DNA of 64,000 nt from an uncultured Bacteroidales bacterium (GTDB lineage: Bacteria; Bacteroidota; Bacteroidia; Bacteroidales; FEN-979), in the NCBI GenBank assembly GCA_963768805.1, contig CAVYJI010000012.1, positions 3,305-67,304 of the forward strand, given 5' to 3'. Under the pieces are notes generated by a model, which saw only the letters and a program-made list of their open reading frames with translations, was not told where the DNA came from and searched no databases. The translations under genes and the position numbers were made by a program. This document shows, one piece after another, positions 4,813 to 59,847 of this stretch. Position 1 is the first letter of the stretch. Each line of letters starts with the position of its first letter.

Positions 4813-5787
4813 TTATTTATTACGTTCAGTCGTAAAAATCACGAGTTGTTCGAGTGAATCCCTAAAAATATTTTGCGGGAAAGTGCGTAGAAGGTCAATG
4901 GCTTTTTGGCGGTTTTCAGACATTTTTTCGTGGGCATACTTTATACCGCCATTTGATCTGACCTTTTCGATCAGTTCAGCCACGCGTAAAGGTTCTGTAT
5001 TATGATTCTTGACAGTATTAACAATCCATCTTCTTTCAGAGAATCCTGAGTGGTTCATCAGGTAAATCAGAGGAAGGGTCATTTTCTGTTCTTTAATGTC
5101 GATGGCTGCAGGCTTCCCGGTAGCATTACCGGTTTCATAATCAAACAGATCATCCTTGATCTGGAAGGCAATCCCTGTATATTCCCCAAAAAGGCGCATC
5201 TTTTCAATGGTTTCCGGATCGGATCCGGACGAAGCACTTCCGCAGGCACAGCAGGAGGCAATAAGGGAGGCAGTCTTTTTACGAATGATCTCGAAATAAA
5301 TTTCTTCACGGATATCGAGATGGCGGGCTTTTTCAATTTGCAACAGTTCTCCTTCGCTCATTTCCCTGACTGCATTTGAGACTATTTTAAGAAGATTGTA
5401 ATCATCATTTTCAAGTGAAAACAATAATCCTTTTGAAAGAAGATAATCTCCGACGAGGACTGATATTTTATTCTTCCACAATGCATTGATGGAAAAATAT
5501 CCCCTTCTGAGGTTGGAATCATCCACTACATCGTCATGTACCAGTGTCGCCGTATGAAGTAATTCTATAAGGCAGGCAGCACGGTAGGTGGACTCTCTGA
5601 TCCCTCCTGTAACACTGGCAGACAGGAATACGAAAAGGGGACGCATTTGCTTCCCCTTACGTTTAATGATGTAATGCATGATCTTGTCCACCAATGGAAC
5701 GCTGCTTTTCAAAGAAGCTCTGAATTTTTGTTCAAAGATCCCGAGGTGTTCTGCAACCGGAGCCTGTATTTCCCTGAGTGATAGCAT
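4813..5787 (-). CDS. Long-chain polyprenyl diphosphate synthase (IspB-like)
   Basis: 324 aa with first and second Asp-rich motifs LVHDDVVDD and QIKDDLFD. Confidence 0.92.
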   Translation of the reverse strand: MLSLREIQAPVAEHLGIFEQKFRASLKSSVPLVDKIMHYIIKRKGKQMRPLFVFLSASVTGGIRESTYRAACLIELLHTATLVHDDVVDDSNLRRGYFSINALWKNKISVLVGDYLLSKGLLFSLENDDYNLLKIVSNAVREMSEGELLQIEKARHLDIREEIYFEIIRKKTASLIASCCACGSASSGSDPETIEKMRLFGEYTGIAFQIKDDLFDYETGNATGKPAAIDIKEQKMTLPLIYLMNHSGFSERRWIVNTVKNHNTEPLRVAELIEKVRSNGGIKYAHEKMSENRQKAIDLLRTFPQNIFRDSLEQLVIFTTERNK

Positions 5788-54680: not shown

Positions 54681-55073
54681 ATGCTTGGAACTCTTAAAGA
54701 TACTGTAGAAAATCCCTCAAAATGGCGCCTCAAGATGGCAGAAAAAATTGCTGAAAAGCTCGATCTGATCCGTTTTGGCGTGGAGGCCATTTATCTGATC
54801 GGAAGTACTAAAAGATATGATGCCGGACCTGCAAGCGATATAGACCTGCTTATTCATTTCCAGGGAAGTGAAAAGCAGAAGGCTGAATTACTGGTATGGC
54901 TGGAAGGATGGGGTCTATGTCTGGGTGCAATCAATCAACAGATCACTGGTCAAAAGACCGAAGATCTGCTGGATATTCACCTGATCACGGATGAGGACAG
55001 ACAGAACCGCACTAGTTTTGCGGTCATGATCGGTTCGAACTTTGACCGCGCAAAATTATTGAAGACCAGATGA
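54681..55073 (+). CDS. Minimal Pol-beta-superfamily nucleotidyltransferase
   Basis: 130 aa with a G-S-x10-D-x-D signature (IGSTKRYDAGPASDIDLLIHF). No HEPN partner is visible. Confidence 0.85.
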   Translation: MLGTLKDTVENPSKWRLKMAEKIAEKLDLIRFGVEAIYLIGSTKRYDAGPASDIDLLIHFQGSEKQKAELLVWLEGWGLCLGAINQQITGQKTEDLLDIHLITDEDRQNRTSFAVMIGSNFDRAKLLKTR

Positions 55074-55945
55074 CAAACGGGAAGGCGATAAATAACCTGA
55101 AGACGAACCTGGTCTTTTTTGTGTCCGATCTACATGGGCACAAAGACAGGTATGACAAGCTGTTTGAACAGATAAGGCTTGATCAGCCGGTCATGGTTTT
55201 CATCGGCGGAGACCTGTTGCCCAATTTTGTCCGCCATACAGCAGAAAAAGATTTCATATTAGATTTTTTGATTCCCGGATTCGAGGAACTCAAAGATGGG
55301 CCTTCAGGGTACCCTGCAGTTTTTATGATCATGGGGAATGATGATCCGCGGATCCTGGAAGAGGATCTGCTTCTGGGAGAAAAAAAAGGTTTATGGACAT
55401 ACATGCATAACCGTAAGATCGCTTTTCATTCCTATATGGTTTATGGTTATGCCTGTGTGCCGCCAACTCCTTTCCGGCTGAAGGATTGGGAGCGTTATGA
55501 TGTTTCGAGGTACGTTGATCCGGGTTGTGTATCGCCGACCGAAGGGTACCGGACGGTCAATACTCATGAAGATATTGAATACTGTACGATTAAAAATGAC
55601 CTGGAAGTACTGACCAGTAATGATGATCTGGCTCGTGCTATTTTTCTTTTTCATACTCCCCCCTATCAGACCAATCTGGACAGGGCGGCTCTTGATGATG
55701 TGTTAATCGAACATGTTCCCATGGATGTGCATGTCGGGAGTATTGCAGTCAAACGGTTCATCGAAGAGCGAAAACCCATGATCACATTTCATGGTCATGT
55801 ACATGAGTCGTCAAGAATTACCGGTTCCTGGTCTGAAAGGATTGGTAATACATGGGCTTTTAATGCAGCATTCGATCAAAAAGAATTATCCATTATTAAA
55901 TTCCCGATTGATCATCCGGAATTATCAGAGAGGCTGATCATTTAG
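55070..55945 (+). CDS. Calcineurin-like metallophosphoesterase
   Basis: 291 aa with an ATGA overlap with the NTase gene. Motifs: SDLHG, GGDL, GNDD, HTPP, GHVHE. Confidence 0.9.
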   Translation: MTNGKAINNLKTNLVFFVSDLHGHKDRYDKLFEQIRLDQPVMVFIGGDLLPNFVRHTAEKDFILDFLIPGFEELKDGPSGYPAVFMIMGNDDPRILEEDLLLGEKKGLWTYMHNRKIAFHSYMVYGYACVPPTPFRLKDWERYDVSRYVDPGCVSPTEGYRTVNTHEDIEYCTIKNDLEVLTSNDDLARAIFLFHTPPYQTNLDRAALDDVLIEHVPMDVHVGSIAVKRFIEERKPMITFHGHVHESSRITGSWSERIGNTWAFNAAFDQKELSIIKFPIDHPELSERLII

Positions 55946-55999
55946 GAAACTCTTTAATTATTTGACGAGGATGATCATTATCCCAAAAAAGATCTGAAC

Positions 56000-58669
56000 A
56001 TGTCCCGAGGACCAATAAACGAATTCCGACTGAGAGCCTTTTATCCAAACTATTATGCATTAAAGCAGGTTTTGTCTGGTTCATCTGACAAAGTAAAGTC
56101 AGTGGCAGATTCCATATTCCCATCACCCGAGCTAGAATATAGAGACCCTGAAGATCAGTCATTTCATAAACTTCGCTTAAAAAACAAAGAAGTAATCATC
56201 CTTAGTCAACCGGACAGGGCAAAAGCTACAAAGTACCTGAATCTTCTCATCGCTTCCATAGACAATGATCCTTCCTCCGCAAAAGAAAAAGAAAAGATAT
56301 CAAGGCAATACTTTAAGTCATTGAAATCAAAGTTTGACAACATGGATTTTACTGACAATGAAATTGTGGTTCCTGCTTCGACGAAGAATCCATATGACGA
56401 ACTCCTTCTAAGCCAAAAAGGGAAAGTCTTGCTTGATTTGTACCAGGAAGGCTATCCCGTTCCTGATTTCTGCGTACTTACTTCACGTTCTTATCAGCTT
56501 GGTGAACGTGAGCGGGAATTATGTCTTCAGAAGGCGATCTCTGACCTTGAAAGAATGACCGGTGAAAAGCTGGGAGATCCGGATCATGCACTTGTCTTTG
56601 CCATGCGGTCAGCCACCCCGCATTATATACCAGGCCTTATGCCGACTTTCCTTAATGTAGGTGTTACAAAGCTTAGCTTCAAGTCACTGGAACAAAGGTA
56701 TGGACGTCAAGCTGCAAATAAGATCTACCTGAACAATCTTCAGTCCATTTGCCAGCTCCTTGCCCCGGGACAGGATTTTTACGGTTCGAAGAAAGAGGAG
56801 TGTACGCCTGCTTCCGAAGAGATTGAACACAGGATAGACAGCCTGATTAAAAAAATTGAGATCATCGACAAGCAGATATTATATGATGCACACTACCAGG
56901 CAAAGAAGTTCATGCGATATTCCCACAGCTTTTTTACACAGAACCAGGATCTCATTTATACTTTTCAGCGGGGACATGTGACATATCCTGCATTGATCCT
57001 GCAGAAGATGGTATGGACTATCCGTAATCATGATTCTTATCCCGGAGTACTTTATAGTCGTCATCCTCGTACCGGACTTGGGATGCAGATTGAAAGCAGC
57101 AGGGAAATCTTCGGTGAGGAGATCATGACGGGGACAGTTCGTGCCGAAGAAAAAGAGTATTTTGACCGTGAAGAGATCAAAGAGGAATTTCCTGCTATCT
57201 ATCATTTCACCCCCATGCTTCCTAAACTTGAAGTGAAATTAAAATCCCCGGCTACAATTGAGTTCGCGGTGGAATCTTTTGAGGGCATTTCACTTTTTGC
57301 AATCCTTCAGCTCAATATGTCAGAGCTTACAGGAAGGTCGACACTTCTTACAGCAATCGATCTTTATCAAAAAAAGATCATCTCAAAAAAAAGGGTTATC
57401 CAGCTGATCCGTCCGTACCATTTACGACAGATCTTTTCTGAGAGGATCGACGATGTTTCGCTAAAATCACTAACCTTGTTTGGGTATGGGGTTTCAATTT
57501 TGCCGAGGTCTGCCGTTTCTGCCAGGATCTATTTCTCGATGGCAAAAGCCCTGGAAGCAAAGAAAAGGGGTGAAAAGGTTTGCCTATGCAAGGAAAATTT
57601 CATCCCTTCTGAAACGATCTTCATGGGAGAGCTTGATGCTATCATGAGTATGAGCCCGTTGGCCATTCATGTGGTGACTGCCTGCCTGGGTTATGGGATA
57701 CCTGCTTTCATCAACCTGAGGAACCATCAAATTGATCTGGAAGAAGATGTCATCAGCAATGCCCTTGGGATAACCATTCATGAAGGAGACTGGATCACTG
57801 TATCGAGTAAGCATCATTGCATTTATATCGGGAAAGCAAATTACAAGCCGGCGCGTTTTCAGAAATATCTTGAAGGCATAAAACTTGAGATGGACTCAAA
57901 GGAAGAGAAGGTTTTTATTAACATGTCGAGGGCTTACCATGCATACCAGGAGATCCTGAATACGCTCAAGACAGAAGAGGCCATGAGCCTGCCCGATCTG
58001 ATCAAGCTGATCCGCAATGATTATGACCAGCAGCCGCAGAAAGCCATTGAATTCGTAAACGGCTGGTTTGATGCTCACATGGAGTATTATTTTACCGAGA
58101 TAGTAAAGAGCGGACTAGGTTCTCACATGGACCAGCATAAGATCTATAATTTGCTTACGACCGAACGGAGGATCCTGTTTTTCAAAAGCATGATACTTAA
58201 ATGTCAGAGAGAGAAGCTAAGCGGCTTTTCTGCAGGAGCTTTTATGCTTGGCAGGTTTTTATGCCAGAATCACCCTGTATCATTCTGGAAATCATTTGGT
58301 CCTTCTGATATTGCTTTTTTGCTTAATGAATATGTCCTTTTTGAAAAATATATGCAGGTTCTTTATGAATTCGGAGAACGACATCTGAACAGGATAAAAA
58401 ATAAGATCTTAACGGACGACCTGAATACAATAACCCTGTCCAAGATGAATACGGATACATTTCTTACCTTGAAATTATGCTCTTTTGACTGGGAGGATAT
58501 TGAAACCCGGATCAATCCTGAACACGAAAAAGATACACGCACCCTGATCCGGACTTTAAAACAGCCATATGGGGTTCTTGTCGATTACAACCTTCCCTGG
58601 TCATTTGAGAAGTTACAAGCTGTTTGTGATGCGGAAAAACTGGAAACACCAAGCCCAAATACCATTTGA
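56000..58669 (+). CDS. PPDK/PEP-synthase-like dikinase lacking the PEP/pyruvate TIM barrel (ATP-grasp + swivel His domain + unknown C-terminal domain)
   Basis: 889 aa. Three sets of blocks match PPDK as I recall it:
- AMRSATPHYIPGLMPTFLNVG corresponds to PPDK VRSGA..SMPGMMDT.LNLG.
- YSRHPRTG...GEEIMTG corresponds to FTRNP.TG...GEDVV(A)G.
- In the swivel domain, ILPRSAVSARIYF...SPLAIHVVTACLGYGIP aligns with ...GGMTSHAAVVARGMG, placing the His at codon 557 (57668-57670).
The last ~270 aa are helical and match no PPDK region I know. Confidence 0.85.
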   Translation: MSRGPINEFRLRAFYPNYYALKQVLSGSSDKVKSVADSIFPSPELEYRDPEDQSFHKLRLKNKEVIILSQPDRAKATKYLNLLIASIDNDPSSAKEKEKISRQYFKSLKSKFDNMDFTDNEIVVPASTKNPYDELLLSQKGKVLLDLYQEGYPVPDFCVLTSRSYQLGERERELCLQKAISDLERMTGEKLGDPDHALVFAMRSATPHYIPGLMPTFLNVGVTKLSFKSLEQRYGRQAANKIYLNNLQSICQLLAPGQDFYGSKKEECTPASEEIEHRIDSLIKKIEIIDKQILYDAHYQAKKFMRYSHSFFTQNQDLIYTFQRGHVTYPALILQKMVWTIRNHDSYPGVLYSRHPRTGLGMQIESSREIFGEEIMTGTVRAEEKEYFDREEIKEEFPAIYHFTPMLPKLEVKLKSPATIEFAVESFEGISLFAILQLNMSELTGRSTLLTAIDLYQKKIISKKRVIQLIRPYHLRQIFSERIDDVSLKSLTLFGYGVSILPRSAVSARIYFSMAKALEAKKRGEKVCLCKENFIPSETIFMGELDAIMSMSPLAIHVVTACLGYGIPAFINLRNHQIDLEEDVISNALGITIHEGDWITVSSKHHCIYIGKANYKPARFQKYLEGIKLEMDSKEEKVFINMSRAYHAYQEILNTLKTEEAMSLPDLIKLIRNDYDQQPQKAIEFVNGWFDAHMEYYFTEIVKSGLGSHMDQHKIYNLLTTERRILFFKSMILKCQREKLSGFSAGAFMLGRFLCQNHPVSFWKSFGPSDIAFLLNEYVLFEKYMQVLYEFGERHLNRIKNKILTDDLNTITLSKMNTDTFLTLKLCSFDWEDIETRINPEHEKDTRTLIRTLKQPYGVLVDYNLPWSFEKLQAVCDAEKLETPSPNTI

Positions 58670-59477: not shown

Positions 59478-59600
59478 TGATCGAAGCTTAATCGAAGCTT
59501 AATCGAAGCTTAATCGAAGCTTAATCGAAGGTTAATCGAAGGATCCCCGAAGGAACCCCGAAGGAACCCCGAAGGATCCTCGAAGAATTCCCGAGGTATA
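59478..59600. repeat. Degenerate tandem array, 11 units of exactly 11 bp with a CGAAG core
   Basis: CGAAG (last unit CGAGG) starts at 59482, 59493, 59504, 59515, 59526, 59537, 59548, 59559, 59570, 59581 and 59592. The units drift from AATCGAAGCTT (x4) to CCCCGAAGGAA (x3). All cores are on the plus strand, as at 3370-3460. Confidence 0.9.
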
Positions 59601-59774
59601 CTACAGGAAGTTTATTGTGAGTCAATAATTACGATATAGCAAACATTACTTAATGATACAGATAACTATCAGAAGGTTCTATTAAACAGGATGGTGTTAA
59701 CAAAACTTCCATCACTATAAAACAAAAAAAGCCCTGAACTATTTATAATTCAGAACTTTAATACTTTGCCTTTG

Positions 59775-59847
<73 letters not shown>

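Follow-up and report, generated by a model that had tools for sequence, protein, structure and literature searches.

This report concerns three adjacent genes in a 64,000-nucleotide stretch of genomic DNA from an uncultured Bacteroidales bacterium (GenBank assembly GCA_963768805.1, contig CAVYJI010000012.1, positions 3,305 to 67,304 of the forward strand), and we refer to this whole stretch as the window. The genes lie on one strand and encode, in the order in which they are read, a nucleotidyltransferase (NTase), a metallophosphoesterase (MPE) and a protein of 889 aa with similarity to pyruvate phosphate dikinase (PPDK). An earlier note, made from the sequence alone, had proposed that the three genes constitute a single functional cassette ending in a truncated PPDK-like dikinase, possibly with a role in defence or conflict.

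The genes are indeed as tightly packed as the earlier note described. The stop codon of the NTase gene and the start codon of the MPE gene share the sequence ATGA at 55070-55073, a 4-nt overlap by which the MPE is translationally coupled to the NTase. The MPE gene ends with TAG at 55943-55945, and 54 nt separate it from the ATG of the 889-aa gene at 56000. In comparisons with two relatives, the three genes have ratios of nonsynonymous to synonymous substitution rates (dN/dS) of 0.06-0.14 (0.06-0.10 for the NTase), which indicates purifying selection on each of them; together with the existence of hundreds of homologues, this identifies the three open reading frames (ORFs) as functional genes rather than chance ORFs. 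The domain identities and catalytic signatures proposed for the three proteins hold as well, being supported by Pfam and NCBIfam matches and by motifs that are conserved in homologues.

Table 1. Location of the three genes, of the features between them and of the domains of the 889-aa protein.
Feature	Location	Strand	Basis or remark
NTase ORF, 130 aa	54681..55073	+	ORF listing
MPE ORF, 291 aa	55070..55945	+	ORF listing
Intergenic spacer, 54 nt	55946..55999	+	TTTGAC box inside, no terminator-like hairpin
TTTGAC box	55961-55966	+	34-39 nt upstream of the 889-aa ATG
889-aa ORF, PPDK-derived dikinase-like	56000..58669	+	ORF listing
N-terminal extension	aa 1-135 of 889-aa protein		absent from PPDK
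ATP-grasp domain	aa ~136-485 of 889-aa protein
Phosphohistidine swivel domain	aa ~490-620 of 889-aa protein
His557 codon	57668..57670	+	predicted phospho-carrier His of the swivel domain
All-alpha C-terminal domain	aa ~633-889; 57896..58666	+	DSSP on AlphaFold2 model

The NTase matches the Pfam family NTP_transf_2 (E 2.7e-7), has the catalytic core G41-S42-x10-D53-x-D55 and is a minimal Pol-beta-type nucleotidyltransferase that consists of the catalytic core only. In other lineages the same domain is only the C-terminal part of larger proteins of 287 aa or ~1,060 aa that are encoded beside the MPE. The window NTase aligns with residues 170-285 of the 287-aa form and with residues 980-1094 of a 1,101-aa form, and its ORF opens exactly at the conserved WR motif, which is the first motif of the domain. 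A tblastn search of the window found no remnant of the N-terminal domain of the longer proteins (referred to below as the N-domain). The idea that the 130-aa NTase is a decaying remnant of a 287-aa gene was rejected on the grounds of its low dN/dS, its start at the WR motif and the independent occurrence of stand-alone forms of 127-142 aa, which are found in the clade of the window and at the loci L138, L170 and L172 (loci of homologues are cited by such numbers).

The MPE is a calcineurin-like phosphoesterase (Pfam Metallophos, E 2.5e-9), and its metal-binding motifs D20xH22, G46G47D48, G89N90D91D92, H195 and G242H243xH245 are invariant in 19 homologues. It carries a highly conserved family-specific insert, PPTPFRLKDWERYDVSRYVDPG, at residues ~131-152. 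The AlphaFold2 model has a pLDDT of 78.7, falling below 50 in the insert (residues ~131-160), which is probably a family-specific element for the recognition of a substrate or partner. The nearest folds according to Foldseek are aq_1956 (2YVT; E 1.2e-11) and TT1561 (1UF3; E 6e-9), of the Pfam family Metallophos_3. Both are structural-genomics proteins that appear in the PDB only as hypothetical or under a locus name, with 15-18% identity to the window MPE and without its conserved KDWERYDVSRYVDPG insert. The next matches are the Mre11/SbcD nucleases and MPPED2, the former with E ~1e-6 to 1e-5, TM 0.45-0.5 and 12-14% identity, a similarity of general superfamily fold. Fold comparison gives no assignment of the MPE substrate, the nearest structures being themselves uncharacterised. 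The insert, encoded at 55460-55540 (residues ~131-160), is also where the MPE family is most conserved, with the sequence PPTPFRLKDWERYDVSRYVDPGC..PTEG.RT.

Association of the NTase with the MPE extends well beyond the window. The MPE family is well conserved (the best 120 homologues are 55-99% identical), and we surveyed 80 metagenomic loci of this family. An NTase domain adjoins the MPE in 60 of them, typically 16-130 nt away and either upstream on the same strand or convergent downstream, and among the loci that extend at least 1 kb to each side only 4 are without an NTase domain. The pair is therefore a conserved unit, and the co-occurrence of these two members of the proposed cassette is real. 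Its signatures are KDWERYD and LHGH[IV]HES in the MPE and WR...GST...SDIDLL...H.VTD in the NTase domain; the window has both. The same adjacency is also present in L016, L086, L087, L089, L170, L172, L174 and L177.

The NTase domain of the pair occurs in several architectures. In at least 39 of the 60 NTase partners it makes up the last ~115 aa of a ~1,060-aa protein with the domain order N-domain, helical region, PPDK_N ATP-grasp, X-domain and NTase, in which the ATP-grasp domain (Pfam PPDK_N, E 7.7e-60) is closest to those of phosphoenolpyruvate (PEP) synthase, PpsA, and rifampin phosphotransferase, RPH. A form of ~287 aa consisting of the N-domain and the NTase is found at 8 loci as well as in L087, L089 and L177. 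In L170 and L172 a stand-alone NTase and the MPE form operons that are surrounded by unrelated housekeeping genes and have no dikinase nearby. In a signalling protein the N-domain is found between PAS and GGDEF domains and is, for that reason, probably a sensor domain. In a representative long fusion (L099), the C-terminal 115 aa are orthologous to the window NTase (56% identity), and the long fusions adjoin orthologues of the window MPE (45-60% identity); unlike these fusions, the window NTase has no sensor-like N-domain, helical region, ATP-grasp domain or X-domain. Profile comparison by hhalign of the fused ATP-grasp domain with the 889-aa family gave probabilities of 8-30% and aligned one short ATP-grasp motif; specific homology between the two was rejected on this basis. 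The invariant GTH motif of the X-domain suggested that this domain may be a divergent phosphohistidine swivel domain. The X-domain and the swivel domain of the 889-aa family gave a probability of 0.3%, in a comparison of low power where ATP-grasp against ATP-grasp, the positive control, reached only 30%. The fused PpsA/RPH-type ATP-grasp belongs to a different subfamily from that of the 889-aa protein.

A few further features of these loci may be recorded. In L099 (4876-8181 and 8036-8800, both on the minus strand) the ~1,060-aa fusion adjoins the MPE, and in loci of this type a second paralogue, with ATP-grasp and X-domain and without NTase, sits just upstream of the fusion; the same cluster is found in L102, L104, L111, L112, L116-L118, L125, L128, L141, L153, L155, L159, L160, L164, L165 and L167. 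The X-domain of the long fusion has invariant GPGRWGS and GTH motifs (GTH872). In a metagenome-assembled genome (MAG) of Prolixibacteraceae (L016, 1696-3813, minus strand) the NTase is fused to a P-loop NTPase (NTPase_1/AAA) in a protein of 705 aa, the gene of which overlaps the MPE gene by 4 nt.

The 889-aa protein is related to PPDK over its central part. It matches the NCBIfam model of PPDK, TIGR01828, with E 1.2e-33 (residues 136-632 against PPDK positions 17-524), and its ATP-grasp region, residues 136-~485, aligns with PPDK positions 17-~390; in Pfam its sole match is a sub-threshold one to PPDK_N. A family profile built from 19 members matches solved PPDK structures with E 3e-31 over residues 136-619, and the isolated central domain of PPDK (2FM4) is matched with E 1.5e-4. 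In the AlphaFold2 model (mean pLDDT 76) the top Foldseek match is again PPDK (1KBL, E 1.1e-25), with RPH far behind (E 2.6e-5, TM 0.19), and PPDK is thus the best match in both sequence and fold. The order of ATP-grasp followed by central swivel domain is the same as in PPDK (TIGR01828; 1DIK, 1KBL), the catalytic His and key residues of the ATP site being kept: H557 is invariant in the 19 members and aligns with the catalytic His of the PPDK ...TSH... motif, and K140, R203, E421 and Q437 are conserved and correspond to the Lys of GGKG, the Arg of VRSA, the Glu of MEF and the Gln of LQT. The chemistry of a His-swivel dikinase is what these residues and the superfamily membership suggest for the 889-aa protein.

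The two ends of the protein differ from PPDK. Where PPDK has its C-terminal TIM barrel for PEP and pyruvate (PF02896), for which the 889-aa protein has neither a Pfam match nor a counterpart in the helices-only model, there is an all-helical domain of ~260 aa (DSSP), and at the N-terminus there is an extension of ~135 aa. The protein is of full length and not, as the earlier note had it, truncated. The C-terminal domain has the invariant polar residues H709, D711, R752, N776, E777, K783, Y784 and E793 and the motif AG(S/A)FMLGRF. It has no match in Pfam, and Foldseek returned only insignificant matches to helical repeats. A search of 1.84 billion representative proteins gave only 85 matches. 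These seem to comprise members of the 889-aa family, either full-length (~880-905 aa) or fragmentary, and one protein of 1,550 aa; the latter has no informative extra domain. The all-helical domain, confined to the 889-aa family, stands in place of the PEP/pyruvate TIM barrel and is presumed to bind the acceptor.

These differences bear on whether the 889-aa protein could simply be the PPDK or PEP synthase of the organism, a reading to which we attach next to no probability. Some homologues are annotated automatically by JGI as 'phosphoenolpyruvate synthase/pyruvate phosphate dikinase', and PPDK has homologous ATP-grasp and swivel domains. However, the TIGR01828 score is 116 bits against a curated equivalog cut-off of 843, the identity to PPDK is 14-17%, and the protein ends not in a PEP-utilizers_C TIM barrel but in a family-specific, all-alpha domain. 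This reading is refuted by the missing PEP/pyruvate domain.

Relatives of PPDK with other roles provide closer analogies. VadK (Rv1127c) of Mycobacterium tuberculosis is a PPDK-derived autophosphorylating histidine kinase (PMC13400623), a descendant of PPDK that has kept the ATP-grasp and His domains, has lost the PEP/pyruvate domain and has a role other than that of PPDK; it is a precedent for a regulatory or other function. The 889-aa protein is a non-member of the family NF004531 (VadK/truncated PPDK; E 7.6e-21, 74.3 bits against a cut-off of 456), and the 889-aa family, unlike VadK, possesses an N-terminal extension as well as a large, conserved domain at the C-terminus. RPH (5HV2, 5FBS) and other small-molecule His-swivel dikinases (PigC/HapC, HpeHI and MarK) use an ATP-grasp domain and a swivel His to phosphorylate a non-pyruvate acceptor held in a dedicated domain, and the 889-aa protein most likely works by this scheme too. 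The domain order in RPH is ATP-grasp, substrate domain, swivel (PMC4844700), whereas the 889-aa protein has its swivel domain in the middle and ends in a putative substrate domain of unrelated fold. The NCBIfam model of rifampin phosphotransferase (NF041857) finds no match in the 889-aa protein, and the ATP-grasp domains of RPH type are closer to the NTase-fused domain of other lineages than to it. Taken together, the comparisons point to a distinct PPDK-derived family.

This family is widespread: more than 800 database proteins match at E <=1e-3, and relatives are present in at least 346 species genomes. We surveyed the best 80 species loci with up to 6 kb per side, 68 of them having at least 2 kb upstream; they come mostly from Bacteroidales and Cloacimonadota, with some from Chlorobiota, Lentimicrobiaceae and others. 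In none of the 80 is the 889-family gene directly preceded by the NTase-MPE pair, and the pair lies within 6 kb in a single locus by tblastn (L016). Conversely, no 889-family gene occurs within 4 kb of the MPE in any of the 80 MPE loci. Clustering of the ORFs in the flanks of the 889-family genes found no family common to more than 7 of the 80 loci (the 7 being CTP synthase), and a conserved operon for the 889-aa gene was accordingly rejected. The contexts are diverse and include a Na+/H+ antiporter and an RND pump (L001), MazG and PadR (L003), an endonuclease and CvfB (L005) and PepSY (L176). The complete trio is limited to one small clade, namely the window, L086, L178 and L174/L175. The 889-aa proteins of L086 and L178 are 88% and ~91% identical to that of the window, and the two loci share its flanks; L174/L175, where the protein is 80% identical, differ in having a gene for an MFS transporter before the trio and a DUF4197 gene after it. 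In a neighbour-joining tree the trio loci form one clade that includes L176, which is without the pair. In sister lineages the 889-family and MPE-family genes are probably on one contig (27.5-28.7 kb), judging from matching sizes, with no 889-family gene within 10 kb of the MPE gene, a spacing that fits gradual rearrangement rather than a selected operon. With the homologues largely non-syntenic, an outcome that the earlier note had itself named as refuting, the proposal of one functional cassette is not supported: the three-gene cassette as originally described is not a new or conserved system. Its components are variants of known enzyme kinds, and two sizeable uncharacterised families were found.

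The intergenic region upstream of the 889-aa gene is consistent with this view. The gap between the MPE and the 889-aa gene is 54, 130 or 148 nt among the relatives, and the last ~45 nt before the ATG are conserved. They contain a TTTGA(C/A/G) box, usually after a T-rich run, ~36-45 nt upstream of the start of 889-family genes whatever the upstream gene. The TTTG core is kept both in relatives with the trio (L086, L174) and in relatives without the pair (L176, L007, L008, L019, L009). The -7 promoter element of Bacteroidetes is TAnnTTTG, as in the promoter consensus of B. fragilis. The resemblance of the box to this element, and its presence with and without the upstream pair, suggest that the 889-aa gene has a predicted promoter of its own. 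A scan for sigma-70 promoters and terminators returned fewer sites than in shuffled sequence.

We consider it reasonably probable that the locus consists of two separate functional units that are neighbours only in one small Bacteroidales lineage. The first unit would be the translationally coupled and widely conserved NTase-MPE pair, in which the NTase would modify a hydroxyl on a protein or small molecule with a nucleotidyl group, AMP being the most likely one, and the dimetal phosphoesterase would hydrolyse the phosphodiester made by the NTase, giving a write/erase couple. The second unit would be the 889-aa protein as a stand-alone PPDK-derived His-swivel dikinase: the ATP-grasp domain would bind ATP, the phosphoryl group would pass to His557 on the swivel domain, and the swivel domain would then swing and hand it to an acceptor held by the all-helical C-terminal domain, a mechanism that is likely by analogy with PPDK, RPH (PMC4844700) and VadK (PMC13400623). 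This unit probably has its own promoter and functions without need for the first.

Several observations weigh against this separation or against parts of it. Of the 56 MPE loci with resolvable architecture, at least 47 have the pair either fused to an ATP-grasp protein of PPDK_N type or beside one, so that it may be no coincidence that the pair has a dikinase-like neighbour in the window. The order of the trio is kept in L174/L175 despite both flanks differing from those of the window, and L016 has the pair ~4 kb away from its 889-family gene, on the opposite strand. The 54-nt gap has no terminator-like hairpin, so that read-through transcription from the MPE gene into the 889-aa gene is possible. 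As regards the chemistry, T419 and N439 in the nucleotide site of the 889-aa protein replace the Asp of DMEF and the Arg of LQTR in PPDK, and both the write/erase chemistry of the pair and the dikinase chemistry are deduced from superfamily membership only.

An alternative, which we regard as unlikely, is that the trio is a true functional module in the clade of the window, with NTase, MPE and an ATP-grasp enzyme cooperating everywhere. Either the NTase-fused ATP-grasp was lost and the 889-aa dikinase supplies the activity by non-orthologous displacement, or the 889-aa protein is itself the target of reversible nucleotidylylation by the NTase and the MPE; analogies for the latter are GlnE acting on glutamine synthetase and PDRP acting on PPDK. 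Fusion to PPDK_N in at least 39 of the 60 NTase partners speaks for cooperation, as do the PPDK_N paralogues that flank the MPE in L093, L109, L128 and L131, in some MPE loci on both sides, and the second PPDK_N paralogue present in at least 17 loci. In the clade of the window an ATP-grasp-less 130-aa NTase stands right upstream of a PPDK-type enzyme, the order being kept in four lineages and, in L174, amid different flanks, without a terminator in the 54-nt gap. Bacteroidales contigs with both families have an ATP-grasp-less NTase, as shown for L016; the L177 contig likewise has an ATP-grasp-less NTase, its 889-family gene being assigned to the same contig from matching sizes only. Against a module, 79 of the 80 889-family loci have no pair within 6 kb, 889-family genes are absent from the 4 kb around the MPE in all 80 MPE loci, NTase-MPE operons stand alone with no dikinase nearby, and L176, inside the trio clade, is without the pair. 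Moreover, the fused ATP-grasp is PpsA/RPH-like and not specifically similar to the 889-aa family, a conserved promoter-like box of its own precedes the 889-aa gene, and the gap before that gene varies. A more general form of the idea, which we find comparably doubtful, is that NTase, MPE and a PPDK_N-type ATP-grasp constitute a widespread undescribed system of three activities that has been re-assorted in the clade of the window. Such a system could perform sensor-controlled reversible nucleotidylylation on or with a dikinase-type enzyme or could be a pathway of small-molecule modification, and the clade of the window would have swapped the fused PpsA-like ATP-grasp for a separate PPDK-derived dikinase with a new acceptor domain. 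The triad of nucleotidyl transfer, phospho-transfer and phosphoester hydrolysis to which the earlier note drew attention does recur, through the NTase-MPE pair with PPDK_N, but the ATP-grasp in question belongs to a different family from that of the window.

Two further readings concern the role of the pair. We consider it extremely improbable that the cassette serves in conflict, whether as an anti-phage defence, as a toxin-antitoxin system or otherwise; an MNT-type NTase antitoxin with an effector would be an example. There are weak PADLOC matches (NTase to PDC-S09, E 7e-8; MPE to PDC-S10, E 3e-7) and a weak match of the NTase to the NCBIfam model of the MntA antitoxin (E 6e-5, 22.8 bits against a cut-off of 60), and MntA of the type VII MNT-HEPN toxin-antitoxin systems is, like the window NTase, a minimal Pol-beta-type nucleotidyltransferase of ~100-140 aa with GS...DxD. 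Minimal NTases such as MntA can adenylylate a partner protein. However, the PADLOC matches are restricted to generic catalytic motifs (NTase residues 25-66 and MPE residues 191-277, the C-terminal third), and so is the MntA match; membership in PDC-S09 and PDC-S10 was rejected in view of the partial matches and the housekeeping context. The partner in MntA-HepT is a HEPN RNase, whereas here no HEPN partner is present: the gene downstream of the NTase encodes the metallophosphoesterase, in a vertically conserved pair, and that upstream encodes AsmA. The flanks in the window have envelope and housekeeping functions, the contexts of homologues include PBP1a, BipA, LepA and MetRS, neither family is found among 2.9 million IMG/VR contigs, and both are broadly and vertically conserved under strong purifying selection. 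The suggestion of a defence role is not sustained by these results.

It is also highly improbable that the NTase and MPE, with or without the dikinase, act in the healing or tailing of nucleic-acid ends in the manner of Pnkp/Hen1 or of a CCA-adding enzyme with a phosphoesterase domain. The Mre11/SbcD nucleases are the nearest folds of the MPE after the two uncharacterised proteins, and the full-length relatives L087 and L089 of the NTase have weak matches to the poly(A)-polymerase-like palm PF22600 (E 1e-4 to 3e-3). On the other side, the Mre11 likeness is at the superfamily level (as quantified above), library scans found no ligase-type adenylyltransferase, P-loop polynucleotide kinase, Hen1 or RNA-binding domain, and the domains to which the NTase is usually fused, one sensor-like and the other an ATP-grasp of PpsA type, have no known part in RNA repair. 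The Pnkp-like logic proposed in the earlier note thus reduces to the shared superfamily fold of the MPE; the NTase is of Pol-beta type, and the window flanks have no P-loop kinase or Hen1.

Returning to the reading as two units, what the window itself contributes is only a lineage-specific juxtaposition, and the interest lies in the two families. The 889-aa family extends the short list of His-swivel dikinases outside central metabolism (RPH, VadK, HpeHI and PigC) by a type with a unique putative acceptor domain, present in hundreds of species of anaerobic Bacteroidales, Cloacimonadota and related groups. The NTase-MPE pair, whose NTase is in most cases part of a larger protein with a sensor-like domain and an ATP-grasp of PEP-synthase type, suggests a write/erase module for nucleotidylylation that has so far gone unexplored. 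New chemistry of regulation or modification could emerge from either family, and neither is likely to overturn current ideas. Neither the family libraries nor the full-text papers searched yielded an account of the 889-aa family, the NTase-MPE pair or the long fusion, and the papers likewise gave none of the gene cluster in which the fusion occurs. No characterised system of the same composition was found in Pfam, NCBIfam, PADLOC or those papers, in line with what the earlier note had stated.

Some observations on the surroundings of 889-family genes remain. In Cloacimonadota (L044, 2959-5520, plus strand; also L048, L053, L054 and L055) an N-domain protein is encoded 1-5 kb upstream of the 889-family gene; that of L044 has 853 aa and the architecture REC-PAS-GAF-PAS-[N-domain]-GGDEF. 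This may be lineage synteny only, or the N-domain may sense something related to the dikinase. In a Bacteroidales MAG (L020, 9425-10870, minus strand) a PPDK_N-type protein, 28% identical to the ATP-grasp and X-domain part of the long fusion, is encoded ~1 kb downstream of the 889-family gene, which means that both ATP-grasp families can coexist in one genome.

The flanks of the trio in the window are also as previously described, with a divergent AsmA gene upstream and, downstream, a convergent gene for a C39 peptidase, 11-bp arrays and tRNA-Phe (59774-59847). The wider surroundings encode envelope and housekeeping functions (RodA, LolA-like, glycosyltransferases, AsmA, CoaX and LptC), and no pathway genes were recognised in the window flanks, again as claimed. 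The interval between AsmA and the NTase is 189 nt in the window and ~540 nt in L086 and L178, where it holds an ORF of 79 aa with weak similarity to MIP (aquaporin) (5080-5319 and 2607-2846, respectively, both on the minus strand); among the listed ORFs of at least 60 aa the window interval has no counterpart of it. Between the C39-peptidase gene and tRNA-Phe, two 11-bp tandem arrays abut at 59480-59594, the first with the unit ATCGAAGCTTA (5.6 copies, 98% matches) and the second with the unit CGAAGGATCCC (5.3 copies, 87% matches); the core CGAAG is common to both units.

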